A DNA stretch of 63,850 bases, the filler included, from Welwitschia mirabilis (lineage: Eukaryota), in assembly GCA_051453625.1 (NCBI GenBank). It is 6 parts of one record of this genome, joined end to end, with 100 filler letters (N's around TTAATTAATTAA, not from the genome) between each part and the next. Parts side by side here need not be neighbours in the genome. Positions count along the whole stretch, not along the records: positions 9,120 to 19,149 come from JBOZIK010000001.1; 5 more parts are not named here. One strand, given 5' to 3'. Position numbers and translations under genes: made by a program. Within the stretch, counting starts at the first letter, position 1; each line of letters opens with the position of its first letter. The notes under the pieces were generated by a model, which saw only the letters and a program-made list of their open reading frames with translations, was not told the origin of the DNA and made no database searches. Shown here one piece after another: positions 1-56,004 of the stretch.

Positions 1-438
1 ATCCCCCACTAACAACGACATGAATATGGTTCAAGGAATCATAAACGTCTGCATAAAGATATATACAGCACAATAGCCTAAAATAACTTGAGCAGTATAA
101 TCTTCGGTGTAGTTTACAAGGTTGTCTCTGAACATTTGAATTTCCTCAACACTCTTTAGAAACTTGAGAGAATCATAGTCCATGGAAGGCATGGCGAGAT
201 ATACATAGAAAAGGACTATGAAGGACAAGATAAAAATGATAAGCATCACGACTGATTCAAAGGATGGAATAATAAAAAGTTTCGATATTTTTTCCTTCTC
301 CTTGCTACTCAATATTTTCCTCTCTGTGTTTCCAGATGAGCGAGATACTGACGCAGCCGTCATTATTGCAAAAAGCCAAAATTGAAGGAAAATCTCAAAT
401 GGCACCGCTAAAATGATGAAGATAGAGGAGTACATCAC
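1..438 (-). pseudogene. TVP38/TMEM64 (SNARE-associated Golgi protein, VTT domain) family gene fragment with a premature stop; continues off the window edge
   Basis: The minus strand reads ...VYLAMPSMDYDSLKFLKSVEEIQMFRDNLVNYTEDYTAQVILGYCAVYIFMQTFMIP*TIFMSLLVGD. This matches the plant family motif GYCxxYIFMQTFMIPGTIFMSLLAG, with the conserved Gly codon replaced by TGA at 31-33. Homology of the N-terminal ~50 aa is uncertain. Confidence 0.85.
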
Positions 439-860
439 AATAAAAAGGGATTTTCAAAGGGGTACATCATACACAAAATAAAAGACATTCAAATGAATGG
501 GGAAAAAATGCCAAAGCAGATCATAAATAGAGAAAGAAATACATGCAGGGAAAACATGAACGCAAAGCATCGAGGATCAAAAACAGGCGCATCACTGCAA
601 CAGAGGAGGTCAACACAACAAATTGGCAAAGCACAGCAGATGATGCCAAAAAGAAAGAAGGATCAGAAGAAATGCCAAAGGACCACATCAAGGGAAGCTG
701 AATTAGAGGCAATTAAAGACAAGACGAGCAGTAACGCTTCATCACAGAAAACATTGAACAGGCCAGATAAGGCCAAAGTCCACCCCCAATTGATGCAACA
801 CTAGAGATCCTTCTTCACAGATAATTTCACTTGATCATCCAATAGTTATCTGAAGGGTAT

Positions 861-9019: not shown

Positions 9020-9119
9020 NNNNNNNNNNNNNNNNNNNNNNNNNNNNNNNNNNNNNNNNNNNNTTAATTAATTAANNNNNNNNNNNNNNNNNNNNNNNNN
9101 NNNNNNNNNNNNNNNNNNN
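9020..9119. other. Artificial scaffold spacer N44-TTAATTAATTAA-N44; also at 19150-19249, 29515-29614, 50048-50147 and 55905-56004
   Basis: The same 100-base layout occurs five times, and the 12-mer gives stop codons in all six frames. Confidence 0.97.
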
Positions 9120-10120
9120 TGTATGTTAGTCTAGAATGCATATTGCATTTTGCATGATAGTTTAATTTCCTGCTTTGTTATTCATTATTTCTGGTTCCCA
9201 AGATTATTTGCAAAAGCAGCCTAAGTTTTCCTATGGATAGACTTCAACAAAATACAACATTTGGGTCACTCCCATTATTCTAGTGTGTTGTATTATGCAT
9301 AATATCTATTTTGATTACTAATGATAAAATCTTTTTGAATGTTAAAGCGTGCATAAATACACACCGCAACAAATTGGTACCACTGTGAAGGAAGTTTATC
9401 AAGGAGTACAAGGGTTATCATCATTCAGATAAGTATACCGATTATTTGTCTATACAGTGTTGATTTTACTAGGAGCTTTAAGTTTTTTGTGTGCTATTTT
9501 TTTAGTTTTGGTTCTTAATTTTTTTGGTTTTTATCGGTTTTTGGTTTTAAGTTTTAAATTTTTTGTAGAAAAATAGTGTGCAATTTCAGTTTTCCATTTT
9601 ATTTTTAGTTTTATTTTCAGATTTCTATTTTCTATAATAAATTAGTTTCTGTCATCTCCTGTAACGTCTAGATGATCGAAAGGATAATAGATAATTTCTA
9701 TTATTTTTTCTATTTTCCGTTTGCATTTCAGTTCTATTTCTGTTTTTCTATTTTTCTTTATATGTTGTATCATCTGTTATTCCCACGACAGACAAGATGA
9801 TGGTTTATTATTTTTTTAATCTATTTTCTGTTATTTTGTATTTGCAAGTACTGTGGTGTGGGTAATCCAGAAAAAAAGGCTTAAAAGGGCTATTGACAAA
9901 AGGAAGCATTTAAAGAAGAATAGGAACACAAACCCTAGGTGCATGCATTATCTTTTCAAGTTTATTTTTATCATCTTAAAAAGCACCTACCTTCATCCTG
10001 AACTTAAAAAATTGTATTCCTCCCATTCTTTTCAAAAATGAATAGTGATAGATGTAAAAACAAATCTAAAGATGATAGTAAGAAAATAGTTGGGGAACTT
10101 ATTGCTAAATTAAAAAGGAA
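9120..10120 (+). mobile_element. Athila-like fragment: subtype A LTR 3' end (to 9371), PBS, 5' UTR and start of the unknown ORF
   Basis: ...AAATACACACCGCAACA ends at 9371 and is followed by the decayed Asp PBS TGGTACCACTGTGAAGGA. The stretch is colinear with ~10540-11320. Confidence 0.85.
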
Positions 10121-11243
10121 NNNNNNNNNNNNNNNNNNNNNNNNNNNNNNNNNNNNNNNNNNNNNNNNNNNNNNNNNNNNNNNNNNNNNNNNNNNNNNNN
10201 NNNNNNNNNNNNNNNNNNNNTCTTCTACTCTCCTTTCCATCTTCAATGCATCAGAGATTCTCATAACAAGATAGCGAAGGATGGAAGATCCATCTTTGGG
10301 AGTTAAAAAAAGATGAGTACTTGGTAGAGGGTTATTATCTTCTATTAAGACCTAGCTATTTTGTAATCCGGATGAACATTTATCTTTTAATATAAATCTT
10401 TGTTTTATTTATGTTTACATTTTAGATCTTCTTGTGACTCTTATAGTCTAATGTTGCCCTAACTTCTAGGGTGATATAGATTATCAAGGGTAACTCTTAT
10501 TAGGACTAAAAAACAAGTAGAGTTAAGGCATTTGCATTTCATGTTAGATTAAATTGCATCTTGCACCTTGCATGTTAGTTTTATTTACTTGCATTATTAT
10601 TTATTATTTATTATTTAAGATTTATTTTGCCAAAGTAACCTGAGTTTTCTTTATGGATAGACTTCAATAATATATGAAATTTGGATCACTCCCATTATTT
10701 TAACATGATGTATTATGCATAATATCTATTTTGATTACTAATGATAAAATCTGTTTGAATGTTAAAGTGTGCATAAATACACACTGCAACAAATTAGTGT
10801 CATTACCAGGGAAGGCTATCGAAGGAGTACAAAGGTTGTTGTCATTTAGATAAGTATTTTGATTATTTTTTTATCTCGTATGATGTCTAGATGACTGAAA
10901 GGATGATAGATGCTTTTTGTGTTTTTCCTGTTTATTTGTTTTAGTTCAGTTTCTATTTTTTCATTTTCTATATACATCATCTTATCTATCGTCCCCACAA
11001 TAGATAGGATGATGGTACATTATTTTTAATTTTTTTTTTATTATTTTCTATTTGCAAGAATTGTAGTGAGATTGGTATAGCAAAAGACTTATTAGAGAAA
11101 AAAAGAGGGGCTGTAGACAGAATAAAGATACCTAAGAAGGATAGGAACACAAACCCCAGGTGCATGCATTATTTTTCCAAACTCATTTTTTAGCACCTAC
11201 CTTATCCTTGAATTAATTTTTTTTTCTCCCATTCTTTTCAAAA

Positions 11244-12900
11244 ATGGATAATGATAGATGTAAAAACAAGATGAAAGTAAGAAAATAGTTGAGGAACTTA
11301 TTGCTAAATTAAAAAACGAAAAGCTGAAGATGAAAGTAAGAAAACAATTAGAGAGCTTTTAGCAGAAAAGGGATACCAATACAAAGAGATATTGATATTA
11401 GGGATAGGGCCCATTCCTCTTTTCAACTACCTTATTATTTCCCTTTTTATTTTCAAAATCAATATGAAACTAGTGAAGAAAATCTTAGGAATTCAACCTC
11501 ATTCTTATCCAATCACCTTTACCCATCACATTCATCCCCCATAAATAATAACTTGACTACATCTCTCAACAATGAAGAAGAGGATGGATATTTAAATGAT
11601 GATGATGAGGTGCTAGTGTTAAATGAAGAAAGAATTTATAAGTATCTCTATTATGATGATGACATTTCTCCTTCTGATGAAAATAACAAACATGATGATG
11701 AGGTGCTTGTGTTAAATGAAGAAAGCATTTATGAGTATCTCTATGGTGATGATCACATCTCCCCAATAGATGAAAGTAACATACAAAAAAATGAAGAGGA
11801 AAGTAAAGACGAAGAGGAGAAAGATGTCATTGAGATTTTAGATCATATTCCAAACTTTCACATATTTTGTAAAGATGAAGGAGTTCCACCAATATATGAA
11901 ATTCAACTTTTAAAAATTCAACTTTTAAAATTAATATCAATGATCATGGAGAAAATAGAAGATGATTTACTCAACTTAGATGAGGATTATAGTTTTGCAT
12001 TAATAGAGTTATTTAAAGAGAAAGAGGAATCAAGTATAAAAATGTTAGAAAGTCTTTCATCTAATATTGAGAGCCTTCTAGTAATATTTTAGATGAAATC
12101 ATCATTTTAGAAAAGAACAATAATCCTCAACAAGAAGAGAAAGAAGAAAATGAAACAAATAATAATAAAGAAGAAGGAGATGTAATCAAAGAAAAAACTA
12201 TTCAAAATTACATTCTTGTCCTTAAAAATAATAAACCACATTATCTTAAGGACTTAAGTTCAAAAATCTTCCAATCTCTTCCCTTGATAACTTCATGTGC
12301 AAAAAGTATTATCTTTTCCTCATTTGCTAAGTTAACTTTACCATGTACTTCCATTGATCTTTCTTTTTCAAAATTAGATTTGGGATGTCTTGAAATTATT
12401 AATTGGGAAAAACCTTATCTTCTTGATCCCAATCCATGTTTTAAATTAAAAATTAAAGAGCTTCTTAGGCACATAAATTCTATCTTAATCTCTCACCTTA
12501 AGAAGTCTTTCACAAATATTTTTTACATCTTTTATATTTAATATCAAACATTGAATGCAATTTATGTTTCAAATCCTTCATATTATGAGTTTGATAAGAG
12601 AATATTTTTTGAGTTATATGAATTATTTATCTCTTACTTTAATGCTTGTAGAAACAAATTGTCATTCTCATTTGGAAAAGCCTTGTCTTCCTAAAAATTC
12701 ACATTCTAAATCAAATAATAGGAGATATTTTAAAAATCCTTTAAAATTGATTTGGAAAATTTCTTTGAGTCCCTTTTTACATGTATTTCACAAAGATTCC
12801 TACAAAACCAAATTTTTTTAAAAGAGATCATTTTTCAATGACAATTATCATTCTTTTGTCTCTTATCTGAATTCTAAAAAAGGTGTTATCAAGGTATTAT
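11244..12900 (+). pseudogene. Disrupted ORF of unknown function in the gag position; includes the acidic ORF 11553-12092 and ORFs 12284-12541 and 12555-12821
   Basis: A coding-like run starts at ATG 11244, with an acidic core and an in-frame 93-bp duplication. The motif NWEKPYLL is shared with a minus-strand homologue near 26470-26490. Confidence 0.65.
11598..11783 (+). repeat. In-frame tandem duplication, 2 x 93 bp (31 aa)
   Basis: The two units translate as DDDEVLVLNEERIYKYLYYDDDISPSDENNK and HDDEVLVLNEESIYEYLYGDDHISPIDESNI. Confidence 0.95.
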
Positions 12901-14124
12901 CTTATTATTCTCTTTCCTCCTAATTGATTTTACTGAAAAATAATTGCATACCCTTCATGTTTTATCAATTGGTGAATATTTGTTTTGGACCACATTTTTC
13001 TAAAAATCTTGAAACCATGTCTCTTTTGCTTTCTTTCTTTTTAGTGTGTTTTTAGCTTTAGGATTTGAATACAGTTTACTTACTTTAATCATTTTCTTTT
13101 CTGTTTTCTATTTTCAGAGTCTCTGTTTTTATTTTCTGTTCTCTGTTTTGTTTCTGTTTATAGCTTTTATTTTCTATTTTTGCAAAAATAATATGTCATC
13201 TCCACTGTCATCCCCACAACAAAGTGGACAACAGTCAGTTTTTTTTCTTTTTTTGTTTTCCTATTAAATTTTCTATGTTCTGTTTCTTTTTTCTATGTGA
13301 GTTATCCTATTTATCATCTGGATGATAAGAAGGATAAAAATTAATAAAAAGTTATTTTTGCTTTTTGTTATTATGAGAAAATACATTTTTATGGCTCTAT
13401 TGAAATATCTAACTTGACTACTTAAGAATTATAGTAAGCTAATGGGTAAAAAATTGGACTTTCATGAGCAAACCATCTAAATTTTCTCTTAGCCTTTTTC
13501 CTTTGAAAGAGTATTGTGGCATTACTTAATCATCTTTCAAACCTGACTTATGTATATATTTCTATGACTAGTTTTTTTGACTAAGGCATTTTAGTGGTAA
13601 GATTGGATTCACCCAATCTTAGGACATTCACAAGTCCATGAACTTCAATTGAAGGAAGNNNNNNNNNNNNNNNNNNNNNNNNNNNNNNNNNNNNNNNNNN
13701 NNNNNNNNNNNNNNNNNNNNNNNNNNNNNNNNNNNNNNNNNNNNNNNNNNNNNNNNNNTTGAAAGAGTATTGTGGCATTACTTAATCATCTCTCAAACCT
13801 GACTTATGTATATATTTATATGACTAGTTTTTTTGACTTAGGCATTTTAGTGGTAAGATTGGATTCACCCAATCTTAGGACATTCACAAGTCCATGAACT
13901 TCAATTGAAGGAAGATGCCTTATTTTTAATGCTTTTCTCAATAGTGAAAGGGTCTCAGATTATTTAAGAGTGTTCTTTTCTATTCTAATCTTTTTGATTT
14001 TTACCTTTATCTTTTGGAGTGATTAATCATGTAAATGTTATTTATATTTATTAAAAAAAGAGAGAGAGAAGAAAGTATGAATAAAGACCAGGATTTTTTA
14101 TATTTCTATCTCAAAAACATGGTC

Positions 14125-14338
14125 ACCATGATGTCCTATCATAAGTACACTGGTGTAAATATTTCTAAGAGGATCCTTTGGTAGTGTAATATGGTAGCTA
14201 TGAGAACTCCACTGGGACGTCAGTTGGCCATGCTTCATAGGTCCTTACTTCTCTGACAGGGGTTGCACTCCCCTCATCATGGGTAATAAAAGTTCTAAGT
14301 AAAACTTTGAGGCTATGGGATCAGTGGTGTTCCTGGTG
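14125..14338 (+). ncRNA. Conserved non-coding 3'-region module, putative structured RNA (copy 1)
   Basis: Aligns with 55084-55287 (+) and 18823-19051 (-). It is closed by CCATGATG...CATCATGG. Confidence 0.5.
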
Positions 14339-15226
14339 TCATCAGAGACATTGCTTATTTCCTAGACTCTTACTCTTTCCACATGATCATTTTATTTTTT
14401 GAGATTTTGATGTTTATTTTAAAGATAATAATAGGAGAGTTCATTTTCAGCCATTCTTTGATTTAATAATTCATTGTTTAAAGCATTTTTCTCTAGCATC
14501 ATTATAATAACTACCTTATTAAATGGAATTTTTGTATATTAAGTTATGCATTTTTTACATCAAGTAATGTTATGATTACTTTTATTGAAAATTACTAGGT
14601 TAAATTATTAGAGTGGTAAGCTATCTTTTGTTTATGTTATCTTATGCCCATTCTTCTTGTTTTCTTTTGTAGTTTGGTTAATTTATTTCAAAGTTATTAC
14701 CGTATTTTCTTACTATGTTTCCCTATTTTTGGTTTTCAATAAAAGGTAATTTCTTATTTTAGATTTGTATTTCAGATTTTTGGTGTGGTAAAATGCTGCT
14801 CATATTCTTTTTTATGATGAAACACTTTCTATCCACTTGTCAGAGTATTTCATATCTCTATATTTTTCAAATATAACATTACTTAGCTTTGCACTTTATT
14901 TTAAAAGTTGTCTTCATTTTCATTTCCTGCTTTCCCACTCTTGTTTAATCTTCTTTGCTTTATTTGCCAATACAGGACGTATTGCTTTTTCTTTAGGGGA
15001 GGATAGAGACCCATTTGCATGTCTTATTTTTCAAAAATTTTTTATGACATAAGTTTTCAAAAATTTTCAAACACATTGTGCATTACTTGTCATTTATCTA
15101 CATGATGTATTTTTATGAGCTAGTTTTATGATTTCCAAATTATCTTTTGAAAAATAAATTGGCTCATAATTATGGTTTTTCTATCCAATTTTTATTAGGA
15201 ACTAACAAAGGCTAAGTGGGGGGCTA

Positions 15227-16286
15227 TGTTGCGCTGCCAATTTATGGTTATTTGATGGGTTTTATGAGTTATTTTGTAGGACTTTTATATAGGTTTTAGT
15301 GTAAATTTGAGGATTTTAAAGTTACAAGAGGAAATCTCAAAAAAGTGCATTTATTATCCAAATTTGATGCATTTAAGATACTTTTCAGTGAAAAGAGCTT
15401 TTCATGATAAAATAGCTAAGTTTCTCCTCAAAAAATACATTAAGGAAGACCATCGTCTCCTCAGTCGTCCACACAATAGGTAGGATGATGACCCTGATGT
15501 GGACTGCTGAGTCATTACTTTTAGAAATATTTTGTAATGTATCATCTCCACTATCATCCAGACGACAACCTAGATGACACTGATATGTAACTGTTACTGA
15601 CAGATTCTCTCAGCTATTTCATCCATTTCCAAGTGCCTAATAAGTGCGTGTAACCACATCTTCTGTCTATCTATTTTTGTTGTATTCCCTATAAATAAAG
15701 TCCCCCTTCTATTCTCTTTTCCATCTTCATTGCACCAGACATTCTTGTGACAGGAGATCGAAGGGTGAAAGATCCATCTTGAGTGTTGCAGAAAGACGAG
15801 CACTTGGTAGAGGGTTATCATCTTCTATTGAGATCTAGCTATTTTGTAACTCAGATGAGCATTTCTCTTTTAATATAAATCTCTTTTTTATTTATGTTTA
15901 CATTGTAAATCTTCTTGTGACCCTTATAGTCTAATGTTGCCCAAGATCTCATGACAATTTCTTGGGTGATATAGATTATCAAGGGTAGATCTTATTAGGG
16001 CTAAAAAGCAAGTAGGGTTAAGATCATTTACATTGCATGTTAGATTAGGTTACATCTTACACTTTGCATGGTAGTTTATTTATTTGCATTGTTCTTTATT
16101 ATTTCCAGTTTTTAAGATTTAATTGTTAAAGTAACCTGAGTCTCTTTACAGATAGACTTCAACGAGATAGGACATTTGAGTCACTCCCATTATTCTAGTG
16201 TGTTGTATTATTCATGATATCTATTTTGATTACTAATGATAAAATCTTTTTGAATGTTAAAACATGCATAAATACACACTGCAACA
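15227..16286 (+). repeat. Complete LTR, subtype A (1060 bp)
   Basis: Runs TGTTGCG...CTGCAACA with a PPT upstream and a TATA box CCTATAAATA near 15688. Confidence 0.92.
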
Positions 16287-19149: not shown

Positions 19150-19249
19150 NNNNNNNNNNNNNNNNNNNNNNNNNNNNNNNNNNNNNNNNNNNNTTAATTA
19201 ATTAANNNNNNNNNNNNNNNNNNNNNNNNNNNNNNNNNNNNNNNNNNNN

Positions 19250-20856: not shown

Positions 20857-23800
20857 ATGTTAAGGTATAGTAACATCTAGTTTAAAAAAAAAAAATACTA
20901 AAGAGAGTGGCTGTTCATAGAAAAAACATTTGAGAAGGTTTGATCAACTTCAAAATTAACTTAGGTACACACAAAAAAGATATACAAGTTTTAAAAATTT
21001 GAAAAATTTCTATGTTTATTTCTTCAGAGTCTAATTTTGTGAGAGAAAATTTTTGAAAGATTATTTTAATAATAGTTTTTAATTTTTAAATATGTTTAGC
21101 TCATTACAAAAGTAAAAGAAAACCACTTTACCTAATTTACCCCTTATCATTAGAACCCTAACAATTACATCTATTAAACCTAATGCCAATGTCATCATTA
21201 GAAATTAATTGCTAATAAAAAATGTGAAATTCAAACCACTTTTGGTTTACCTCCTAGCAATGATGTTAAACTTAAGAACCTAAATTCTTATCCCATTTTT
21301 AGTGGTGAACTTGATGAAGATCCTTTACAACACATTATTGACATCAAATAGTTAGTGCTCACTTCAGGTAAAAGTAAGAAAAGAATAAGTGATAGAACTT
21401 ACATGGTCATTTTTCCCATGACTTTAAAATGAAAAGATAAATTTTGATTAAGAACAATTCCTCATAAGAGTTTAAAATCATAGCGTCAAGTTCAAGAAGC
21501 TTTTATTAAGAAATTCATGAGTGAAACTACCATTGAAAAATGTAAGAAGGGATAATCAAATTCTAATAATAACCTAATGAAGATTATGCCTCTACCTATG
21601 AAATATTTTTGATTTCTTTACATTCAAACCTTACAGATGCTTTTTCTTAATAAGAATTACTAGACTACTTTTATAGTGGATTCAATAGTTAAACTAAGCA
21701 ACTAGATGATTTTTTATGTGAAGAAAATTTCTTGAACCTTACTTTAACACATGCTTGAAAAGTGTTAGAAGAGTTAGTGGAAGTGAGTCAAACTTGGCTT
21801 AAACCTTTACCTAGAGAAAATCAAACTATAAGTTAAATCATTAAAGATCTTAAAGAGGTTAAAAGAAAGCAAAACAAGAATTAAAAAATGAAAATGAACT
21901 AATAACTATCATTAAGGATTTTACCTCAACTTTAGAAATATACATTCAGATTATTTTAGATATAAAGGTGGCAATAGAGAAGAGTGTAGTTGTAGTTTCA
22001 ACTTGTGTTTTGTGTGAAAACAATTATCATGTTACAAAAGAGTGTTTTTTATTATCTACATATGAAGAAATAATTTATAAAGAAGTATGTGCTTTTAGTA
22101 AAAGATCTTAAAACTTTAACCAAAACCAAAATGAAATCAAAGCCAAATTCAAAATCACAACAGTTTTCAACCTTAGATGAGTGGATAATCTAGCTTTAAA
22201 AATTTTTAAATAAATCATCCTAACTTTCAATAATTTAGAAAAAGATTTTAGAATATAAATTTATAATCAAATAAATTAAATAATCAAGAAATATTATCCA
22301 ATTCATAAAACTAAGGTGATCCACTTAGAAATTCCATTGATGAGTTGAGGAAAACATAAGAAAGAACAAATTCCAATATTGAAAATCTTGTGAGTATTTT
22401 GTAACAAACTATGCTTGCTAACCAAACACCATAAGATCACTTGGCACTCAACCTTTACCAGATCCAAATGAAGTTAAGAAAGATTGTAAGGTGATGATAA
22501 GAAGTGAAAATGAGATAACACCTCCTACCTATAAGGCTTCAACATCTCAAAGTGATAAAAATAATGAAGAAAAGAATATAGAAATTCTANNNNNNNNNNN
22601 NNNNNNNNNNNNNNNNNNNNNNNNNNNNNNNNNNNNNNNNNNNNNNNNNNNNNNNNNNNNNNNNNNNNNNNNNNNNNNNNNNNNNNNNNAGTTAGTAAAA
22701 GTGAGTCAAACTTGGTCTAAACCCTCATATAGTAAAAATTAAACTATAGGTCAAATCATTAAAGATCTTAATAAGGTTAAGCAAGAAAAAGAAGAAATAA
22801 GAACTAAAAATGAACCAACAAATGCCATTAAGTATTTTACCTCAACTTTAGAAAAATGTACTCAAATAATTTTAGATGCAAAGGTGGTAATGGAGAAGAG
22901 TGTAATTGTAGCTCCAACTTATGATTTGTTCAAAGACAACTATCATGTTATAAAAGAGTATCCTTTACTTCCAAAATACAAATAAATAATTTATAAAAAT
23001 GTATGTGCTTTTAACCAAAAATATTCAAATTTCAATCAAGATCAAAATCAAATTAAAATCCAAAATCATAACAATTTTCAATCTAAGATGAATGGACAAT
23101 CTAAATTTTACAATGTTTAAACAAATAATTCTAACTTCAAACCATTTAAAAAGAGATTTAAGGACATAAATTTCCAATCAAACAACTCAAATAATTAATA
23201 AAGTTTATTCAACTCATAAAACCAAGGTGATTTAGTTAGAAATTCCATTGATGAATTGAGAAAAGCACAAGAAAGAATAAATTTTAACATTAAAAGTTTT
23301 GGGAGTATTTTACAACAAATCATGCTTGCTAAATAAAAGCTATAAAGGTTACTTATCATTTAAACTTTAACAAGCCCAACTAAAGTTAAGCAAGATTGTA
23401 AGGTAGTAATAAGAAGTGGAAATGAGATAACATCTCCCATTCATGAGGATTCAACATCTCAAAGGAATAAAAATAAAGAAGAAGAGGATATAGAAATTTT
23501 AGAAGATTATTTTTTCTCTTTTCTTTTAAGCAATAGAAAGAAAAATTCTTCACATAAAAAACTTGTAGCCCACTGGCTTGATAGATTAAATTTAAATTCT
23601 ACATTTGATAAATAAACATCTTAAAGATTTAATGCAAAATGTCAGTATTAATTTATCATTTTAGAAACTTTTGCAAGAGGACTCTAAGTATTATAAGTTG
23701 TAAAAATATCTAATTAGGAGGAAACAAAAGTAAATCACTTATAGTAAAGTCCTCTTAGCATAATCCATTAACAACTTAGTTTGATAGAAAAGTTCAAAGT

Positions 23801-24900: not shown

Positions 24901-26339
24901 TATTATGTGTGAATCTATGCAATTCTAAAGTTTTTTAGATGAAACTGTAGATCAAATAACTTGCAGAAAATACACACTAGTATAGATGGGAGTTTAATTG
25001 AATGTCATAATCCTAATGAAGGCACTAGGATAAGAGTTAGAGAATTTATTTCCAATATGTTTTTAGTCTTTTATCTTATAAAAAATAAAAGTAAATAAAT
25101 AAGTAAATTCAATGCAAGTAAACGCAAATGAAATGCAAGTGAAAGTGGAATAAAGTCTCTTGGTTCCTAATCCTTCTATCACAAGGACTAGCCTCTCTAT
25201 AATTTAAATCAATTAAGAAGAGTATTCAACTAGTTCTTAACTAATATAAACTATAAGATCTACCAAATAGAATATCAAAATGAAATGAAATAGCAATGCA
25301 AGTTTAATACTAACTAAGGTCAACCTTAATAAAAGTTTCCCTTATGATCTAGATAAATCACAAAGTTATTACTTTAAACTATGATCAATATAAACCATAA
25401 GAGATATATATATAGTTTAAATGAAAATAGCAATTGTATTGATTCAAAGTGTATTTGGATTAATTCAAAAACTTTACATCCACTTATAATAGAGTAATAG
25501 CATCTCAATGAAAGATAGCCTAACACCAAGGGAACTCCTTTATGTACCTCTAGATGGATCTCTTGTCCTTCAATCTTCCACCACAAGCATATTAGGTATA
25601 AAAGATGAATTGGAAGTAAGGAAAAGAGGGGTATTTATAGTTTTACATTAAAAGTTCTAAAAACATAAATTTAGTCATTGGAGAGAAAACCCTAGCAGCC
25701 CAAGTGGGGCACATGACCTTATTAAAAAATAATTTAATCCTGCATATATAAAATAGTTATTATTTTGACTGTCATAGGGATGATACTAGAAATGATGCCC
25801 CTTAATTATAGATAATTAATTAGATTCTAGCTCTGCAATCAGCCCTGGGAATGACAATGGGAATGAAACCTCCCTTAAAAAGGTGCTTTTTTGACTCGAG
25901 GCTCTAGTCTAAATTGCTATTGCAATAGGTTAATACAGTGGTATCGTTCCCTCTGTTGTGAGGATGACAATGGGTATGACATACTTCCAAAGCTCCTTAG
26001 GTAAAGCAAATCAACCTTCTTTCATCATTAATCTTCTTCCAACATACTAAGTACTAGAACATGCCTAAAATGCCTCCAATTATGCCAAGAATTATTTGTT
26101 TCTGTGATCATCCCATCGACTCTTTATAATCATCAGAATTGCATCCAAACCTATATAAATGTCCTATAAAAGTACTCCACATTTACCATTAAATTCTTAT
26201 AAATTGATGTTGTAACATAGCTCCCTACTTNNNNNNNNNNNNNNNNNNNNNNNNNNNNNNNNNNNNNNNNNNNNNNNNNNNNNNNNNNNNNNNNNNNNNN
26301 NNNNNNNNNNNNNNNNNNNNNNNNNNNNNNAATAGTATA

Positions 26340-27968
26340 AAGCATTAGTATCATTAAATATTTCATTTAAGGTACGACTCAAAGAATGAGCCAAGAAGGT
26401 TTTAAGGGCTTTTGATAATGTTAAATAAGATTGAGAAGCTTCTTAAGATTCAAATCTAATCATGGATTATCATTAAGAAGATAAGGCTTACCCCAATTCA
26501 AAATTTGAAGATATTCCAAGTCAAACTTTTAAAAAGGATAATCAACAAAATCACAAGATAAAGTAAACTTGGTAGAAAAACAATGAATGCTACTTTAAGG
26601 ATCACATGAAATTTGAAAAGGGAGAGATGGAGAGATAGGAAAAATAGACTCTTCAAAATTATGGATATTATGAGAGTTAAGAAAAGAAACATGACCTTGA
26701 GAATTATATGAAGGTTTAATGGGAAGAGATGGAGAAGGATTATCATAATTAAGATCATAAGGTAATGTAAAGGTAAAAGTAGAAGTAAAAGAAATGATGT
26801 GATCTAAAATTGTACATAAAGGTATACATAGAAAGGATTTAGAAGTATGGGTAGAATGAATAAGTTTATCCTCTATGAAATTTNNNNNNNNNNNNNNNNN
26901 NNNNNNNNNNNNNNNNNNNNNNNNNNNNNNNNNNNNNNNNNNNNNNNNNNNNNNNNNNNNNNNNNNNNNNNNNNNNNNNNNNNATAAGTCTATCCTTTAT
27001 GAAATTTGAATGAATCTCTATGAGTCCTTCATTGTGATTAGTTTCTTTACTATTATCTTTATCATTATTTTGTTAGGTTATTGCTTTACTTTTATCATTG
27101 TTATTTGTAACTAGATCTTCCTTTTCATGTAAACATTGCTTTCATTCTCCAGATTATTGGATTCATTGAAAATATTAGCAAGAGAAATAAGAGCATTATC
27201 TTCATCATGGATTGAAAAGTTTACAGTTTTTTCATGAACGAATTTCTTATCCCAAGTATTTAGTATTAAATGAATGGCAAGAGTATAATCTAAAACCTAA
27301 ATATCATCATCTAATGAATAGTCATCTTTATCTCAATTGTTGAAAAGTTGAGTTGAGTTATTATTATCTATTCTTTACTCATCTCCTAATGAGTAGGATG
27401 TTGAAGTTTAATTCAAAATTTTGTATTTGAGTTGAAAGCAAGAATCATTATCATTTGTGTCTAAGTTATCCTCATTTTCCTTAAGGTAGGATTAAGTAGG
27501 ATAGTTTTGAGGACGTTGTGATGTAAAAGAACCTTAATTTTATAATAATTTTTGATGCAAGATTTCAACTAATATTTCTAGGTTCTTGTTGTGTTCTCTT
27601 GATTCTTTGTTATTTCATTAATCTTTTCTTTTAAAGGATTATTTTATTACTTGTATTAGGTCATGGGATATTGTTCCTCTTCATAGTAATGCATGGGAGA
27701 TGGTTGGGATTGATAAAAGGGATTGTAAGAAGTTTATCTAAATCAAGAGAAATCCCTAAAATATGGAAAATCTTCATTATCATTTCTATATAAGGTTTTA
27801 AAATAAGAGGGAAAAGAATAAGAAGATTGAAAAGAGAAAGGTGTCCAATTCCTATTATCAACATTCTTCTATGGTGATCTCCCCCTTTCAGTAAAACATT
27901 TTGAAGTGTTTTCTTATTATTATCCTCATCATTTTGCAAGTTTCTTCTCCTTTCAAAAAGAAGTTTCA
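26340..27968 (-). pseudogene. Homologue of the unknown ORF at 11244-12900
   Basis: The minus strand at ~26420-26546 reads VDYPF*KFDLEYLQILNWGKPYLLNDNP*LDLNLKKLL, aligning without gaps to IDLSFSKLDLGCLEIINWEKPYLLDPNPCFKLKIKELL. The N-terminal part at ~27770-27940 also aligns with ~11330-11490. Confidence 0.7.
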
Positions 27969-28068
27969 NNNNNNNNNNNNNNNNNNNNNNNNNNNNNNNN
28001 NNNNNNNNNNNNNNNNNNNNNNNNNNNNNNNNNNNNNNNNNNNNNNNNNNNNNNNNNNNNNNNNNNNN

Positions 28069-28176
28069 ACATTCGGATCACTCCGTCTATACTAGCGTGT
28101 TGTATTTTGCATCTTATTGATAATTAACAGGATTGAATTTGAAATATAAACTATTGCACAAATACACATCGCAACA
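28069..28176 (+). mobile_element. 3' terminus of a subtype D-like LTR inserted antiparallel into the 5' UTR of the minus-strand element
   Basis: GGATCACTCCGTCTATACTAGCGTG...AAATACACATCGCAACA matches 47221-47323. No PBS follows. Confidence 0.8.
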
Positions 28177-29614
28177 ATGGGGATGATAGAGGAAATGATA
28201 AACTCTGAAAAAAAAATTACTAAAACTCAGAAAAACCTAGATTACTAGAAAAATAGATTATCATCCAAGCTGTTGTGGGGATGATTAAGGAGATGATAAT
28301 ATTTTTATTATTGAACTAAAAATAACAGAAAAATTAAAAAAATAAAAAATAATTTCAAAATTTTAAAACTATAGTGCCTAATTTCATTGGGATGATGGAG
28401 AGAATGACAGGATCCCTAAAAAATTATGGAAAATAAAATTTTATAGAATAAACCTAATTTAAGCTAAGCTAAAAATATAATACTAATTCAAATAAATAAC
28501 CTAAACAAAAGATTCAAAGTACTTATCTAATTAGTGATAATTCTTCAGCTCCTTATCACCTTCCCCGATAATGGCACCAAAATGTTTTGGTGTGAATTTA
28601 TACAATTGTAAAGTTTTTTAGATAAACACATACTAGTATAGACGGGAGTTCACTCGAATCTCATAATCCCAATGAAGGCATTAGGCTAAGAGTTAGTGAA
28701 TTGATTTTTAATATGTTTTTGATCTTTTATATTATAAAAACTAAAAGTAAGTAAATAAGTAAATGTAATGCAAATAAATAAAAATGAAATGCAAGTAGAA
28801 ATGGAATAAACTCTCTTGATTTTCAATCCTTCTATTACAAAGACTGGCCTCTCTATAATTTAGATTATTTAAGAAGACTATTAACTTAGATCTTAACCAA
28901 TATAAACTATGAGATCTAAATATAAAATGTAGTGTGAAATGAAATGGAATTTCAATGCAAATCTAATACCAACCAAGGTTAACCTTAACAAATGTTGCTC
29001 TTATGATCTAGATAAACTACAAATTTGTTACTTTAAACTATAATCAATGTAAACGATAAGGGGAATATACAAAATTAAAATGAAAATAGTAATTGTATTG
29101 ATTCAAATAGTATTTGAATTAATTCAAGAACTTTACATCTACTTAAAATAGAATAATAGCATCTCAATGGAAGAGACTCATCCTAGCCCAAGGAAACTCC
29201 TTTCTGTAGCTTTGGATGGATCTCTTATCCTTTAATCTTCCTTCACAAGCATATCAAGTATAAAAGATGAATTGAAAGTGAGAACAATAAGGGGTATTTA
29301 TATTTTTACATTGAAAGTTCTAGAAACATAACCCTAAGAGTTAGAGAGAAAACCCTAGCAGCTTAAGTGGGATGCATGACCCAATTACAAGATAATTTAG
29401 CCCCACATATATAAAAAAGTTATTATCCTAACTGTTGTGAAAACAACACTAGGGATCATACCTCTTAATAATAAATAATTAATCAATTCTAACTCCACAA
29501 TCGACCCTATAGTTNNNNNNNNNNNNNNNNNNNNNNNNNNNNNNNNNNNNNNNNNNNNTTAATTAATTAANNNNNNNNNNNNNNNNNNNNNNNNNNNNNN
29601 NNNNNNNNNNNNNN

Positions 29615-46079: not shown

Positions 46080-49000
46080 TGTTGCGATACCAACTTATGT
46101 GTATTTGATAGGGTATTTTGAGTTGTTTTACAAATAAACTAACAGATAATTCTTTAGTTCCTATGACAATCGAGAATCAAGGAACATGAGATGAAAACAT
46201 GCAAATATCGGATAAAATATAATTAATTCATGCAGGAATAGAAGAGTATCATTTTTGGATCATGATTTTATAGAAGATAAAGAAATTTCACTAAGAAAAA
46301 GATCAAGAAAAGATTATTGTCCACTCCGTCATCCACATGACAATTAGGAAAACAACTCCAAATGAGAATATGACAAAGTTCTTTTAAGATAACTTCTAGT
46401 TGAACTGAAGATTTTTCTATCAAACATTGTCANNNNNNNNNNNNNNNNNNNNNNNNNNNNNNNNNNNNNNNNNNNNNNNNNNNNNNNNNNNNNNNNNNNN
46501 NNNNNNNNNNNNNNNNNNNNNNNNNNNNNNNNNNNNNNNNNNNNNNNNNNNNNNNNNNNNNNNNCTTCTTCTAGACGACAATAGAGATGATACTATTCTC
46601 CCATAGTTTTACAGAATGTTTTCTCGAGTTGTCACCTCTTTATTGTGACTTTATTATACATGTTAGCTAGGGTTTTTACTTTACTTTTCTATCCATTTCC
46701 TTCCCCTTTCTGTCTATAAATAAAGGTCTTTCTCTCAATTCCTAATCATCTTCATTAATACTTGACATTCTTGTGCCAGGAGATCTGAGGACTGGAGAAC
46801 CATCTTATAATCCAAAGAGACGTTACCTTGGTGTTAGGCAGTGTATCCTCCATTAAGAAACAACTACTTTGTGATACAGATGCCTTTTATACTTTTAATA
46901 TGAATTATCTTTTTTTATCAATAATTGCAAGAACTTATCTCTCATAGTTTATGTTATTTAAGATTCATGACAAGTTTCTTTAATTATATAGATTATGAGG
47001 GCAACCTTTATTAAGGTTGAGCTTGAGTAGATTAGTTACATCATTATTTTAATTCCATAGATTAGTTGCATTGTTATTCCAATTTCATAGATTAGTTTTT
47101 CATCATTATTTCAATTTCATGCATTTTAATTTAATTCAATATATTAAGGTTACATATTTCTTTCTCAAAATCAACTCTTTGTTATCCATATCATTGGCCT
47201 TCGATGGAATTACAATATTTGGATCACTCCATCTATACTAGCGTGCTATATTTATGCATCTTATTTGTAATTAATATGATTTAAATCAAGGTGTGAAACA
47301 TTGTATAAATTTGAACCACAACAAATTGGCACCATTGCTAGGGAAGGCTACTTGGAAATCAAGAGTTGTCGTTGCTTCAGTGGATATTCTGGATGTTTGC
47401 TGTAGCATCGATGTACCAATACTCCGTAAGTATTTTATTTTAGTTTTAACTTTTTACTAACCACTGACATCCCTTTCATCATCCAGATATCATAGTTAGA
47501 CAATTGAACCCTTTTCTACTTTCCCTTGATCTGTGGTTATGTGTGTTTTTTGTCTTTATTGTCTAGGTTATCGTCTAGACGATGTACAGGATGATAGCTT
47601 CTGTGAACCAAAAAACTAAATGGTAAAAATAGGAAAAGGCAAAAAATACCAAATAGAGAGGCAGTTCATTACAGAAAATATCTGAGAAAGTTTGCTAAAT
47701 TTTGAAATTGAAAATCAAAACAGACCAGGTATGCAAACTTTAAAATTTCCTGAAATTTCTGATTTTAATTTTTTAAAAGAGTCTAATTTTAATTTTGAAA
47801 AATCTGATGCCATGTTGACCTCTCACCAAAAACAACCTATCTTACTGAATTTAACCCATGTCATTGGAACTATTACTCCTAGTCCTCGTGTGACTCTGAA
47901 AGATCTGATAGTAAATAAAAGACTTGAAATTCAAAACCCTTTTGACTCACCTCCAAGCGATAATGTGGAACTGAAAAACTTAAATTCTTATCCTACCTTG
48001 CGAGGAGAATCTGATGAATACCCCCTACAACACATCGCTAAAATTGAATAACTCATTCTTACTTCCAAAAATGATAAAAAGTACATAACTAGTAGAACTT
48101 ACATGGTCATTTTCCCCATCACATTATGAGATAAAGCTAAACTTTGGCTTAGAATGATACCTCATAAGAGTCTAAAATCTTGGAGCCAATTTTAAGAGGC
48201 CTTTATTAAAAGATTTATGAATGAAACCACCATCTGGAAACATAAAAAAGAAGTCACAAACNNNNNNNNNNNNNNNNNNNNNNNNNNNNNNNNNNNNNNN
48301 NNNNNNNNNNNNNNNNNNNNNNNNNNNNNNNNNNNNNNNNNNNNNNNNNNNNNNNNNNNNNNNNNNNNNNNNNNNNNNNNNNNNNNNNNNNNNNNNNNNN
48401 NNNNNNNNNNNNNNNNNNNNNNNNNNNNNNNNNNNNNNNNNNNNNNNNNNNNNNNNNNNNNNNNNNNNNNNNNNNNNNNTGAAGTAAGTCAAATTTGGTT
48501 AAAACCCTCATCTAGAGAGAACAGAATAGTAGGTCAAATTATCAAAGACCTCAAAGAAGTTAAACATGAGAAAATTGAAACCAAAATAGAAAATGAACCA
48601 ACTAGCGTCATTAAGGATTTTACATCTACTTTGGAGAAATACACCTAGATGATCCTTGATGCTAAAGTAGCAACTGAGAAAAGTCAACTTATTATTCCAA
48701 CTTATAATTTATGTGAGGATAGTTATCACATCATGAAGGAGTATCCTTTACTTCCTACATGAAAAGAGAGGATTTATGAAGAAGTTCATGCTTTGAACCA
48801 AGGACTCTCTAACTACACTAAAAATTATAACTAGATATAAGTCCCCAATTACAANNNNNNNNNNNNNNNNNNNNNNNNNNNNNNNNNNNNNNNNNNNNNN
48901 NNNNNNNNNNNNNNNNNNNNNNNNNNNNNNNNNNNNNNNNNNNNNNNNNNNNNNAACTATCAAAATAACATGGCAAGCCCTTCCAACTCCCAAAACTATA

Positions 49001-50047
49001 GTGATCCTCTTAGGAATTCTATTGAGGAGTTAAAAAAAACCTAAGAGAAGAAAAATGCAAACATAGAAATCTTGTGAAAATTTTACAACAAACCATGCTT
49101 GCCAACCAAAGACCACAAGGAACCATTGCCACTCAACCTTTATCAAACCCTAACGAAGTATGAAAAGATTGTAAGATAGTGACAAGGAGTGGAACTATTA
49201 TAACTCCCAATAATCATAAGGCTTCAACTTCCCATAATAATAAGAATGAACCCTTCAACTACACTCAAAATTATAATCAAAGATAAATCCCTAATTACAA
49301 TTTTAAACATAGGATGCTTGAACAACCTAAAAATTTTTAAACACATCATCCTAAATCCCAACCTTATCGAAATAGATTTGAACATCAAAACTTTCAATCC
49401 AACTATCAAAATAACATGGCAAGCCCTTTTAACTCCCAAAACTATAGTGATCCTCTTAGGAATTCTATTAAGGAGTTGATAAAAATCCAAGAGAAGAAAA
49501 ATGCAAATATAGAAAATTTTGTGAACATTTTATAACAAACCATGCTTGTCAACCAAAGACCACAAGGGACCCTTGCCACTCAACCTTCACCAAACTCTAA
49601 TGAAGTATGAAAAGATTGTAAGGTAGTGACAAGGAGTGGAACTGTCATAACTCCCAATAATTATGAGTCTTCAACTTTCTACAATAATAAGAACGATAAG
49701 GAAGAGGACATAAAAATATTAGAAAATCATTCCTTCCCTTCTTCCCTTAGCAATAAAAAGAAAAATTCCTTACAAAAGAAACCTTCTACTCCATGGTTTA
49801 ATAGGCTTAACGAAAACCCTGTCTTTGACGATCACTTGAAAGCCTTAATGCAAGAGGTAAGCATCAACTTATCCTTCTGGAAACTTTTGTAAGAAAACCC
49901 AAAATACTCTAAGCTATGGAAAGACCTAATTAGAAGAAAGCAAAAATGCGTCATCCCTAGTAAAGTCTTTCTAGCTCAATCTCTTAGCAATTTAGTTTCC
50001 CAGAAGTGTCCAAAATTTAAAGATCTGGGGGCAGCAACAGTTAGTGT
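46080..50047 (+). mobile_element. Athila-like element (subtype D): 5' LTR 46080-47323, PBS 47327-47344, decayed gag from 47620; truncated at a scaffold join
   Basis: The LTR runs TGTTGCG...CCACAACA and the PBS is TGGCACCATTGCTAGGGA. The gag is colinear with the one starting at 20857 (YPTLRGESDEYPLQHI; KCPKFKDLGAATVS). Confidence 0.9.
48811..49696 (+). repeat. Tandem duplication of ~445 bp within gag
   Basis: 48955-49248 aligns with 49401-49696 with many substitutions. The units start AACTACACT at 48811 and 49257. Confidence 0.88.
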
Positions 50048-50147
50048 NNNNNNNNNNNNNNNNNNNNNNNNNNNNNNNNNNNNNNNNNNNNTTAATTAAT
50101 TAANNNNNNNNNNNNNNNNNNNNNNNNNNNNNNNNNNNNNNNNNNNN

Positions 50148-55083: not shown

Positions 55084-55287
55084 ATCATGATGTCCTATGA
55101 CAAGAGCACTGGGGTAAATATTCCTGAAAGGAGCCTTTGATAATATAATATGATAGATATGAAAACTCCATTGGGGCATCAATTGATCATGTTTTACGAC
55201 TCCTTACTCATCTGATAAGGATTGCACTCCCTTCATCATGAACAATTAAATTGCATTTCAAGGCTATGAGATCAGTGATGTCCCTGG
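55084..55287 (+). ncRNA. Conserved non-coding 3'-region module (copy 2)
   Basis: Aligns with 14125-14338 and is closed by TCATGATG...CATCATGA. Confidence 0.5.
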
Positions 55288-55904: not shown

Positions 55905-56004
55905 NNNNNNNNNNNNNNNNNNNNNNNNNNNNNNNNNNNNNNNNNNNNTTAATTAATTAANNNNNNNNNNNNNNNNNNNNNNNNNNNNNNNNNNNNNNNN
56001 NNNN

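Follow-up and report, generated by a model that had tools for sequence, protein, structure and literature searches.

A non-autonomous Athila-like LTR retrotransposon with an orphan extra open reading frame in Welwitschia mirabilis

The window analysed here, a stretch of 63,850 nucleotides of Welwitschia mirabilis DNA with filler included, contains three loci at which remnants of one and the same reading frame, hereafter the orphan frame, lie inside an LTR retrotransposon. In the plus-strand copy A2 the element is bounded by two direct LTRs with TG...CA ends. The 5' LTR (10221-10791) is partial, its first ~480 bp being lost in the 100-N gap at 10121-10220, and is 83.6% identical over 585 bp to 15706-16286 within the 3' LTR (15227-16286; TGTTG...CAACA). 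After a 3-nt AAT spacer follows a PBS-like site of a decayed tRNA-Asp/Asn type (10795-10812), in which 8 of 13 positions match TGGCGCCGTTGCC and all five mismatches are C>T or G>A. The 5' UTR contains a hairpin (10975-11014; MFE -20.3 kcal/mol, z -5.3) around the motif ATCGTCCCCACAATAG, which occurs eight times in the window, the expected number being 0.07. The ATG of the orphan frame lies 3' of this UTR at 11244, and the former coding sequence spans ~1.3 kb from there. Further downstream, a 3' internal region (13809-14281) is homologous to the post-integrase region of a gag- and integrase-bearing element at 50388, with 76.5% identity between 13809-13922 and 54178-54296 and 78.9% between 14055-14281 and 55016-55240. 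The PPT and junction AAAGGCTAAGTGGGGGGCTA (15207-15226) is of a type also found at 16749 and 26217, the purine-rich AAGTGGGGGGCTA being followed directly by the TGTTG of the 3' LTR. The interior of ~4.2 kb is known in full. Its sole gap (13659-13758) is flanked by a 156-bp duplicate of 98.1% identity and is thus an assembly overlap that conceals nothing; a pol region hidden there is ruled out. A very abundant short repeat lies within A2 at 13556-13658.

The preliminary description of this DNA had placed an LTR and a PBS, followed by a non-gag frame, at all three loci. This holds for A2 and for a second plus-strand copy, A1, whereas the start region of the minus-strand copy is missing. A1 opens with the scaffold itself, in the 3' part of an A-type LTR (9120-9371) that ends ...GCAACA and is 82% identical to 16034-16286 and 81.5% to 10541-10868. 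A 3-nt AAT spacer separates it from a PBS-like site (9375-9387), which by eye matches the ATHILA PBS at 7 of 13 positions. The frame of A1 starts at an ATG at 10038, aligns with the start of the A2 frame, and stays open for 27 codons (10038-10120) before the 100-N gap that begins at 10121. The minus copy is bounded by C-type LTRs, and the carriers do belong to different LTR types, as first described (A-type in A1 and A2). Its 5' LTR (28583-29514) is cut by the scaffold end at 29514 and its 3' LTR (24905-26217) is preceded by the PPT AAGTAGGGAGCTA; the pair (29514-28583 versus 26217 to about 24905) is 81.8% identical over 888 bp (24965-25840). The PBS-like site (28562-28579, minus strand), after a TTT spacer, equals the ATHILA PBS at 9 of 13 positions, with four of four mismatches C>T or G>A. 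Where the start of the frame would be expected stand a 100-N gap (27969-28068) and, running into it, a nested A-type LTR end in opposite orientation to the C-type element (28081-28178, plus strand), whose sequence reads as the A-type LTR terminus in reverse complement. The frame remnants (26340-27968, minus strand; N part 27936-27760, C part 26699-26463) contain many stops and one internal 100-N gap. Altogether this copy has three gaps that could hide sequence.

The orphan frame is shared by both full copies and the start of the third, and it is broken in all of them. The preliminary description had spoken of an ORF; a continuous one is absent from every copy, A2 being broken, the minus copy rich in stops and A1 cut by its gap after 27 codons. 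In A2 the frame runs through the order 0, 2, 1, 0, 2, with at least four frame changes and pieces of 78, 246 and 156 codons. The ATG and the charged N-terminal repeats (11244-11346) already pass through frames 0, 2 and 1; alignment to A1 shows one of the breaks to be a 7-bp gap after codon 8, and other genomic copies differ from A2 in this part by rearrangements of repeat units. The frame-1 piece (78 codons, 11308-11541) contains the hydrophobic 19-mer ILILGIGPIPLFNYLIISL (Kyte-Doolittle mean 2.06), whose counterpart in the minus copy is hydrophobic too. This segment, besides which no second membrane segment was found in the frame, could simply mirror T-rich DNA. The frame-0 piece (11352-12089), at 246 codons the longest open stretch, comprises an acidic region and then a helical C-terminal part, and carries an in-frame 93-bp tandem duplication at 11599-11785. 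The frame-2 piece (156 codons, 12071-12538) forms the C-terminal part of the frame and includes the 22-residue block KLDLGCLEIINWEKPYLLDPNP (12371-12436). This block and its counterpart in the minus copy are both present and align without gaps, as had been claimed, and the homology goes slightly beyond them. A possible decayed continuation at 12542-12900 shows several stops in three-frame translation. Within the 79-residue C-terminal alignment the minus copy has two stops, one directly before the 22-residue block and one directly after it. Introns as the source of the frame changes were considered and rejected, no RNA joint having been seen, though reads are almost absent.

The absence of gag and pol from the interior is well borne out. 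None of the 50 stop-to-stop frames of at least 35 codons in the A2 interior matched a gag, protease, RT, RNase H or integrase family in Pfam at E<=0.1. A tblastn search with ten gag, post-gag, integrase and RT pieces of the window found no match there at E<=1, and nothing in 10792-15226 or 26218-28582. The same search recovered gag remnants at five other places in the window. These belong to five other decayed elements and match one another at 39-64% identity, and by tblastn none of them matches the orphan frame. The preliminary description, which gave the interior as 4.4 kb and not the roughly 4.2 kb measured here, was thus right on its content. An element lacking gag and pol is a non-autonomous LTR retrotransposon.

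Gag-bearing relatives stand where they had been reported. At 61859-62921 (plus strand) an LTR that is 73-76% identical to parts of the A-type LTR is inserted into an RT remnant and followed by a gag start (63614-63850, with gag similarity at 63700-63846) whose ATG aligns with that of the orphan frame. The leader and ATG are common to A2 and this relative, and the sequences part directly after the ATG. A C-type LTR at 50388-51643 (plus strand; 77.5% identity over 1201 bp to 28247-29397) is followed on the same strand by a gag remnant found by tblastn (52518-52865) and an integrase remnant (52996-53551; Integrase_H2C2, E=5.4e-5, just below the curated cut-off). Such relatives have LTR ends, PBS type, leader and ATG in common with the element, are 73-80% identical to it and decayed, and none is complete in the window; the RT and integrase remnants of possible partners reach 80-126 residues and fall below the Pfam cut-offs. 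Of the proposal that the lineage depends on helpers paired with it, the lack of gag and pol and the common termini, leader and ATG stand, whereas a complete partner is absent from the window.

The junctions bear on the lineage. ATHILA elements have a tRNA-Asp/Asn PBS separated from the LTR end by an AT-rich spacer of 3-6 bp (ATHILAfinder preprint, the source of our PBS reference and spacer rule). In the window a TGG- or TAG-initial site lies 3 nt past the LTR end, with the AT-rich spacers AAT, AAT, TAT, TTT and TTT. The four copies scored match the ATHILA motif at 7-9 of 13 positions, none perfectly. C>T or G>A changes account for 19 of the 21 mismatches in these copies, which would fit a decayed Asp/Asn PBS, if imperfectly. 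The ATHILA ORF-1 domain (PF03078) matched neither the 50 frames of the A2 interior nor the scanned gag pieces; it is not obligatory, being found in 16% of Athila elements (PMC6317226). As an LTR retrotransposon the element shows junction features of the Athila type, and the family, judged by PBS and junctions since the element itself has no RT, would seem to belong to the Ogre/Tat/Athila group and to be most like Athila.

Several observations bear on whether the orphan frame ever coded. Its 246- and 156-codon pieces are the two longest X-free frames in the whole window. A length of 246 codons was reached in none of 2000 Markov simulations and, whichever of three block sizes was used, in none of 3000 block shuffles; 156 codons were reached in 4 of 2000 simulations and in 2, 0 and 0 of 3000 shuffles. 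Thus, the length of these frames is no effect of composition. In the unambiguous frame-0 stretch 11541-12071, eight of the ten listed differences to other genomic copies fall at codon position 3 (binomial p=0.0034) and six of the ten are synonymous, a count that rests on 40 listed of 93 differences. Taken together, the shuffles and the third-position bias indicate that the frame once coded. The tandem repeats within it recur every 93, 15 and 12 bp, and each of these periods is divisible by three. Between the two 93-bp units the differences are distributed without bias (4, 4 and 6 at codon positions 1, 2 and 3). The C-terminal piece shows no coding signature in its listed family differences, which are four, lie at codon positions 1, 3, 2 and 2, and in one case create a stop.

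Between A2 and the minus copy the frame is 37% identical over 59 residues in the N part (same frame) and 39% over 79 residues in the C-terminal part, the nucleotide identity of the alignments being 64-65%; the best DNA match between the two subtypes in the block region is 73.9% over 138 bp. Nei-Gojobori dN/dS values for this pair are 0.72 and 0.68 in frame and 0.65-0.95 in out-of-frame controls. As the in-frame values do not fall below the controls, the pair carries no signal of constraint, and what had been called conservation across two LTR subtypes comes down to the homology of two pseudogenised copies. A crude LTR-calibrated decay model gave a chance of 0.049 that 402 codons would stay free of stops; the A2 LTRs (83.6%) may be no true pair, or the model may be too crude. 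We conclude that the frame did code in the past and bears no recognisable domain, and the data weakly indicate a phase in the history of the family during which it was translated and under constraint.

In genomic reads the element is amplified to many copies and very abundant in the contigs of two organisms. In two DNA runs, X1 and X2, 17,483 and 12,869 contig pieces respectively fell on 10221-13658 at a likeness of at least 90%, and 948 and 675 at a likeness of at least 99%. In nearly all related contigs the C-terminal block is interrupted within its first codons by a stop at 12375. This applies in X1 to all of a depth of 1198.7 (22 contigs) and in X2 to 1605 of 1619.8 (27 contigs), contig depth being no copy number in either run. 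The minus copy has T at this position like A2, and the stop therefore looks derived. Since the most abundant relatives contain this premature stop, the frame was presumably not needed for later amplification. RNA runs gave 18 and 44 reads on the stretch, of which 17 and 43 lay only partly on it, and most fell on the short repeat at 13556-13658 and not on the frame. With the stop at 12375, no intact copy and RNA reads almost absent, the idea that the lineage encodes its own accessory protein finds no backing here. The frame resembles a one-time gene that the family could later do without.

Searches for homologues returned little. Pfam gave only sub-threshold matches to the frame pieces (DUF4651, E=0.04; ThiS, E=0.077). 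In a word-index protein search the 246-residue piece met 1432 candidates of near its length and 2697 longer ones, none at E<=0.01; HMMER found no match to the 156-residue piece at E<=0.001 among 1.84 billion representatives; and the ESM Atlas held no usable match to either piece. These protein searches are weakened in that host proteins seem to be missing from the library, a neighbouring host exon having a best match of 55% identity. The best PDB sequence matches to the frame pieces (E 0.053 and 0.01) were to unrelated proteins. A degenerate DNA pattern built from the 22-residue block had no match in viral_contigs or metagenome_contigs, and Rfam and tRNA scans of the window found nothing. AlphaFold2 run without an alignment modelled the frame pieces at a mean pLDDT of 36.0 and 43.6, and in the 246-codon piece reached 58-78 only for residues 181-245.

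We consider it rather probable that a non-autonomous LTR family of high copy number, which carried a lineage-specific frame and was copied in trans, left old and decayed copies at the three loci. Resident in what appears as a very AT-rich seed-plant genome, such an element would have kept the cis parts used in reverse transcription and packaging, namely LTRs, spacer and tRNA-Asp/Asn PBS, and PPT, and probably also a 5' UTR with the conserved hairpin motif and a 3' internal region common with pol-bearing relatives. As it lacks gag and pol, gag-pol relatives with the same termini and leader would have provided, in trans, the proteins to copy it. In place of gag-pol the element would have carried a lineage-specific frame of about 430-550 codons beginning at the relatives' gag ATG, in which charged repeats come first, then a hydrophobic segment, next an acidic part that holds the in-frame repeats, and last a helical and a C-terminal part. 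This frame would belong to the heterogeneous class of "extra ORFs", and all copies in the window are now dead. Our best guess is that the protein product was a membrane-associated env-like or extra-ORF protein rather than a capsid substitute. The element is of a fairly ordinary helper-dependent kind, not a demonstrated new protein system.

Other origins of the frame have to be weighed against this account. An env-like extra ORF, which in Athila-type elements normally sits between pol and the 3' LTR, could have been moved beside the leader when gag-pol was deleted or when a spliced subgenomic RNA was reverse-transcribed, leaving an "env-only" derivative. Homology to the gag-bearing relatives ends at the ATG and resumes in the post-integrase region, a hydrophobic segment lies near the N-terminus, plant env-like frames with membrane segments and splicing have been described (PMC7264820), and pol-less Athila elements that keep env-like frames exist (PMC2410132). 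However, tblastn with four frame pieces found nothing after the window's sole integrase remnant, in a region that is short and holds a 574-N gap, the frame has a single membrane segment, and the coding non-autonomous Athila elements treated in the relevant part of PMC2410132 all keep gag; we regard this origin as unlikely. Distinctly less credence goes to a captured fragment of a host gene or of another mobile element with no role for the retrotransposon. The abrupt change of sequence after the ATG, the apparently many sources of extra ORFs (PMC6317226) and the tolerance of a premature stop in abundant relatives would all agree with capture. Against it, no similar protein was found in Pfam, PDB, the Atlas, the 1.84 billion representatives or the word search, host proteins seeming to be missing from the library, and the frame occurs under two LTR types in a very high-copy family, while transduced genes are reported in one or few copies (PMC7264820). 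Between these two in our estimation, and quite unlikely, lies a stronger version of the account that we prefer, in which a gag-less and pol-less lineage used the gag ATG for an unrelated, membrane-anchored acidic protein under purifying selection. If true, this would be the first "extra-ORF-only" plant retroelement, possibly originating from a reverse-transcribed spliced env-like message, and would offer a handle on the role of env-like and extra ORFs, for example in steering helper particles or countering silencing.

That the frame was never a gene, its open stretches being a by-product of purine- and repeat-rich sequence and the block a cis-acting nucleic-acid element, is very unlikely. The acidic part is low in complexity, the antisense strand holds an 86-codon frame, protein-model recognition scores are low (1276 and 966), the best-conserved block starts at a stop in most relatives and in the minus copy, and ORFs in repeat-rich regions can be artefacts (PMC6317226). 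Yet block shuffling never produced a 246-codon frame, third positions take up most of the listed differences in the frame-0 stretch, the repeat periods are multiples of three, and the N and C parts are open in the same frames in both diverged copies. We give next to no credence to a very diverged gag, which the preliminary description had named as an outcome that would overturn its reading. The frame does begin at the gag ATG, and gag is the most variable domain of the polyprotein (PMC6317226); but the gag remnants recognise one another and not the frame, neither Pfam (Retrotrans_gag-type domains and ATHILA ORF-1 included) nor tblastn detects gag similarity, and by eye the frame contains no zinc-knuckle-like motif, unlike the gag remnant at 21863-22108.

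Our verdict is thus an Athila-like element that is non-autonomous and carries an orphan extra ORF; that this ORF encoded an accessory protein is unproven. Among helper-dependent LTR elements, LARDs and TRIMs are non-coding inside and TR-GAG retains gag. The present element resembles them in being bounded by LTRs and dependent on helpers, and differs in having a former non-gag frame. In some gymnosperms a large share of the genome consists of non-autonomous elements, and 10,589 non-autonomous LTR-RTs have been counted in Welwitschia, a class defined, in the part of the genome paper drawn on here, only by missing protein domains and with no frame described (PMC8275611). The same source gives a GC content of about 29% shaped by deamination, and the window agrees with it in composition and in its C>T/G>A decay.

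The closest parallels are non-autonomous Athila elements. In Arabidopsis these are pol-less and carry gag, or gag and env-like frames, on which purifying selection acts (Marco and Marin 2008, PMC2410132); in Brassicaceae, ATHILA elements with gag-protease only are known (ATHILAfinder preprint), and ATHILA4a and some ATHILA0 have no recognisable domain (PMC2410132; ATHILAfinder preprint). Like the element described here, they lack pol, have LTRs, PBS and PPT in common with autonomous relatives, and their mobilisation is presumed to occur in trans; their families are linked by recombination, and some keep coding frames. In contrast, the coding forms, as far as the published portions cited here extend, keep gag and show omega values of 0.2-0.38, whereas here gag is absent, a non-gag frame starts at the gag ATG, constraint is weakly shown and no copy is intact.

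Extra ORFs are common and very diverse in plant LTR elements, some with membrane segments (PMC6317226; Vicient and Casacuberta 2020, PMC7264820). They occur in most Ogre/Tat/Athila elements, form 314 mutually dissimilar groups in Ty3/gypsy, and match any domain in only 21.4% of cases (Neumann et al. 2019, PMC6317226). With pol-less coding Athila elements and heterogeneous extra ORFs already published, the description of the ORF as unrecognised holds for its sequence but not for its kind. At 246 codons the A2 frame would fall under the 250-codon uninterrupted threshold of the PMC6317226 catalogue. The apparent later dispensability of the frame points toward plain parasitism of helper elements, and for now its interest is modest. 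The orphan frame resembles the eORFs and aORFs of Ogre/Tat/Athila and SIRE elements in being lineage-specific and having no common domain. However, the eORFs described in the catalogue sections cited here flank gag-pol upstream or downstream, whereas here the frame stands alone in a gag-less and pol-less element, and a helper-dependent family that keeps only an extra frame would be a clean natural case for asking whether such proteins serve the element.

One of the two plus-strand copies with A-type LTRs, here called A2, can be read directly from LTR to LTR, and its layout is that of the preliminary description, with LTR, PBS and leader followed by a frame other than gag. Its 5' LTR (10221-10791, the start lost in a gap) is followed by an AAT spacer and a PBS-like site (10795-10812), a 430-bp leader up to the ATG at 11244, open-frame pieces over about 1.3 kb from that ATG, a stretch of about 2.7 kb without long frames, the PPT (15207-15226) and the 3' LTR (15227-16286, TGTTG...CAACA). 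The sole gap in the interior (100 N, 13659-13758) has on either side a 156-bp duplicate with 98.1% identity (13503-13658 and 13759-13914); it is thus an unmerged contig overlap with no missing sequence, and the whole of the A2 interior, about 4.2 kb, is known. The other plus-strand copy, A1, retains an LTR end (to 9371), PBS, leader and the ATG at 10038, and enters a gap after 27 codons. The minus-strand copy has LTRs of a different type, C (29514-28583 and 26217 to about 24905, 81.8% identical over 888 bp), as had been noted. An A-type LTR end in inverted orientation (28081-28178) breaks up its leader and runs into a gap; it is either a nested insertion or an assembly join. The frame of this copy starts only past that gap, and two further gaps lie downstream, where sequence could therefore be hidden. 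The 22-residue C-terminal block (12371-12436 in A2) is present in both A2 and the minus copy, and the two align without gaps.

The window is a chain of scaffolds separated by five spacers of 44 N, TTAATTAATTAA and 44 N (9020-9119, 19150-19249, 29515-29614, 50048-50147 and 55905-56004), with numerous 100-N gaps besides; since the scaffolds are separate, adjacency across these five points carries no meaning. GC content is about 19-32% per 2 kb (N included in the denominator). Self-matches of at least 150 bp are almost all 70-84% identical, apart from a single match of 90.4% and the assembly overlap (98.1%). LTR pairs differ mainly by transitions at G/C sites: in A2, 56 transitions are found versus 23 transversions, and 73 of 209 G/C-class sites differ versus 6 of 357 A/T-class sites. 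The repeats of the window are old. Composition and decay resemble those published for the Welwitschia genome (PMC8275611), in which GC content is about 29%, deamination has been at work, and LTR elements without any domain, classed as 'non-autonomous', number 10,589. The only clear piece of a host gene seen in the window is an exon of a VTT-domain (PF09335) membrane protein (34-453, minus strand). Its best protein matches are 42-55% identical, with gymnosperm proteins among the top named ones; these matches make the host a seed plant, probably a gymnosperm with its own proteome missing from the library searched.

None of the 50 stop-to-stop frames of at least 35 codons on both strands of the A2 interior matched gag, protease, RT, RNase H, integrase or the ATHILA ORF-1 family (E<=0.1). 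A tblastn search with 10 pieces (gag, post-gag, integrase and RT) taken from other parts of the window recovered gag remnants at five other window places (39-64% identity) and gave no match within 10792-15226 or 26218-28582. The frame is therefore not a gag like that of the neighbouring elements, and the reported lack of gag, protease, RT and integrase motifs holds for A2. The LTRs starting at 61859 and 50388 do each have a gag remnant downstream (63700-63846 and 52518-52865), the latter together with an integrase remnant (52996-53551). A1, A2 and the 61859 element are homologous across LTR end, spacer, PBS and leader as far as the ATG (63614 in the gag-bearing element, aligned with 11244 in A2 and 10038 in A1), and diverge directly 3' of it; 13809-14281 is homologous to the region past the integrase remnant of the 50388 element. 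Both ends of a gag-pol element are thus retained, with other sequence in between. The 61859 LTR truncates an RT remnant (61648-61858; RVT_1 E=0.023, below the cut-off) and is a nested insertion. Further gag-plus-downstream remnants of one family, with 39-64% mutual protein identity, lie at 21205-23673, 47983-49889 and 58539-60062, and a zinc-knuckle-like CX2CX4HX4C was seen by eye at 21863-22108.

According to the ATHILAfinder preprint, ATHILA elements have the PBS TGGCGCCGTTGCC and a short AT-rich spacer. The 3-nt AT-rich spacer found here agrees with this description, and in the four copies scored the PBS-like sites match at 7-9 of 13 positions, 19 of the 21 mismatches being C>T or G>A. The junction fits a decayed Athila-type junction. 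As an element devoid of RT makes the lineage unprovable, it is most safely assigned to the Ogre/Tat/Athila group. Eight sites in the window (<=3 mismatches; 0.07 expected) resemble the motif TATCATCCCCACAACAG; with both LTR types, they lie in LTRs, in leaders and in interiors (10987, 13206, 50751 and 63319; minus strand, 25785, 25969, 28286 and 45290). The motif forms the loop side of a strong hairpin in A2 (-20.3 kcal/mol, z -5.3), whereas the fold is weak in four other copies (z -0.8 to -2.2). Its role may be to signal packaging or dimerisation.

A continuous ORF is found in none of the three copies. The reading path in A2 runs from frame 0 (ATG) through 2, 1 and 0 to 2, one break being a 7-bp gap relative to A1, and leaves stop-free pieces of 78, 246 and 156 codons; the minus copy is riddled with stops, one immediately before and one immediately after the block. 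Nevertheless, no other X-free frame in the entire window is as long as the 246- and 156-codon pieces. None of 2000 first-order Markov simulations reached the former length, nor did any shuffle within 30-, 60- or 120-bp blocks (3000 for each block size); the latter length was reached in 4 of the simulations and in 2, 0 and 0 of the shuffles, respectively, showing that these pieces are not due to chance. Tandem repeats lying in the frame have periods divisible by three (93, 15 and 12 bp); in the non-coding remainder, periods such as 7, 10, 11, 13, 19 and 20 bp occur. The units of the 93-bp duplication (11599-11785, 85% identity) differ at 4, 4 and 6 sites at codon positions 1, 2 and 3, with no bias; some genomic contigs omit 94 bases within it (11627 to 11722), which suggests single-unit copies.

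The best evidence on past coding comes from comparing 10221-13658 with contigs of two genomic DNA runs, X1 and X2, in which very many pieces of the family occur (17,483 and 12,869 contig pieces, respectively, of at least 90% likeness). Codon-position counts rest on 40 of 93 differences, a subset. Where frame 0 is unambiguous (11541-12071), 8 of the 10 differences listed fall at third positions (binomial p=0.0034) and 6 are synonymous; over the whole frame the figure is 11 of 19 listed (p=0.024), and the four listed in the C-terminal piece fall at positions 1, 3, 2 and 2. One of these four, at 12375, creates a stop in the third codon of the block in essentially all related contigs (X1, the entire depth of 1198.7, 22 contigs; X2, 1605 of 1619.8, 27 contigs). 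As the minus copy shares the T of A2, this stop looks derived, and its bearers are the most successful relatives. Where plus and minus copies align, identity is 64-65% at the DNA level and 37-39% at the protein level, with Nei-Gojobori dN/dS of 0.72 and 0.68 in frame versus 0.65-0.95 out of frame; no constraint is thus visible in this pair. In two RNA runs, 18 and 44 reads matched at >=90%, nearly all partial and mostly on the extremely abundant short repeat 13556-13658. Summed contig depth over this repeat (212,671 in X1, 65,305 in X2) far exceeds its surroundings, and loose contig ends on both sides, at 13593 and 13628, point to some 35 bp as a core present in other transcribed contexts too. 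We conclude that the frame was once coding, was probably constrained in part of the family's history, later became dispensable, and is dead in all three copies.

The frame pieces have no similar protein in Pfam, PDB sequences or the ESM Atlas, a word-index search at near and longer lengths gave no relative, and neither did a full HMMER search of 1.84 billion representatives with the C-terminal piece. Single-sequence AlphaFold2 models are poor (pLDDT 36.0 and 43.6), with block means of 58-78 confined to a predicted helical hairpin at residues 181-245 of the middle piece. From N- to C-terminus, the frame comprises charged repeats, variable in number among genomic copies, one hydrophobic 19-mer (mean hydropathy 2.06) with a hydrophobic counterpart in the minus copy, an acidic region with the in-frame duplication, a helical region and a C-terminal part. 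T-rich DNA readily gives hydrophobic translations. The features listed would suit an env-like or extra-ORF product without establishing one. The main alternative for the origin of the frame, which seems to us rather improbable, is that a deletion, or else a spliced message that was reverse-transcribed, brought an env-like frame next to the leader; env-like frames with membrane segments, expressed via splicing, are described in the review of Vicient and Casacuberta (2020; PMC7264820). Overall, we lean towards a helper-dependent element, which would have been copied with help from gag-pol-bearing relatives, its orphan frame having been expressed from the gag ATG at an earlier stage and having become dispensable later. 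The earlier observation is confirmed in part, and its interpretation is likewise supported in part. The analysis supports non-autonomy, cis parts common to gag-bearing relatives, high copy number and a former coding frame. The proposed conservation across two LTR subtypes finds no selection signal in the pair, and a functional accessory protein common to them is not supported, given the broken frames, the near-universal 12375 stop and the scarcity of RNA reads.

The element is a non-autonomous Athila-like element with an orphan extra ORF, and both kinds are already known. Neumann et al. (2019; PMC6317226) report extra ORFs of at least 250 codons in 3372 Ty3/gypsy elements, among them most Ogre/Tat/Athila elements, forming 314 mutually dissimilar groups with a domain match in only 21.4%, and caution that false ORFs are possible in repeat-rich regions. 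The ATHILAfinder preprint describes abundant gag-protease-only ATHILA and some families with no recognisable domain. The literature searched yielded no description of a gag-less plant element carrying only an extra ORF, which is not proof of absence. In Arabidopsis, the majority of Athila elements lack pol; what they keep under purifying selection (omega 0.2-0.38) is gag, alone or accompanied by an env-like frame. They are probably mobilised in trans, and their families recombine (Marco and Marin 2008; PMC2410132). The Welwitschia element is unusual in a single respect: unlike the gag-keeping elements described there, it lacks gag as well and has its orphan frame at the gag start codon.
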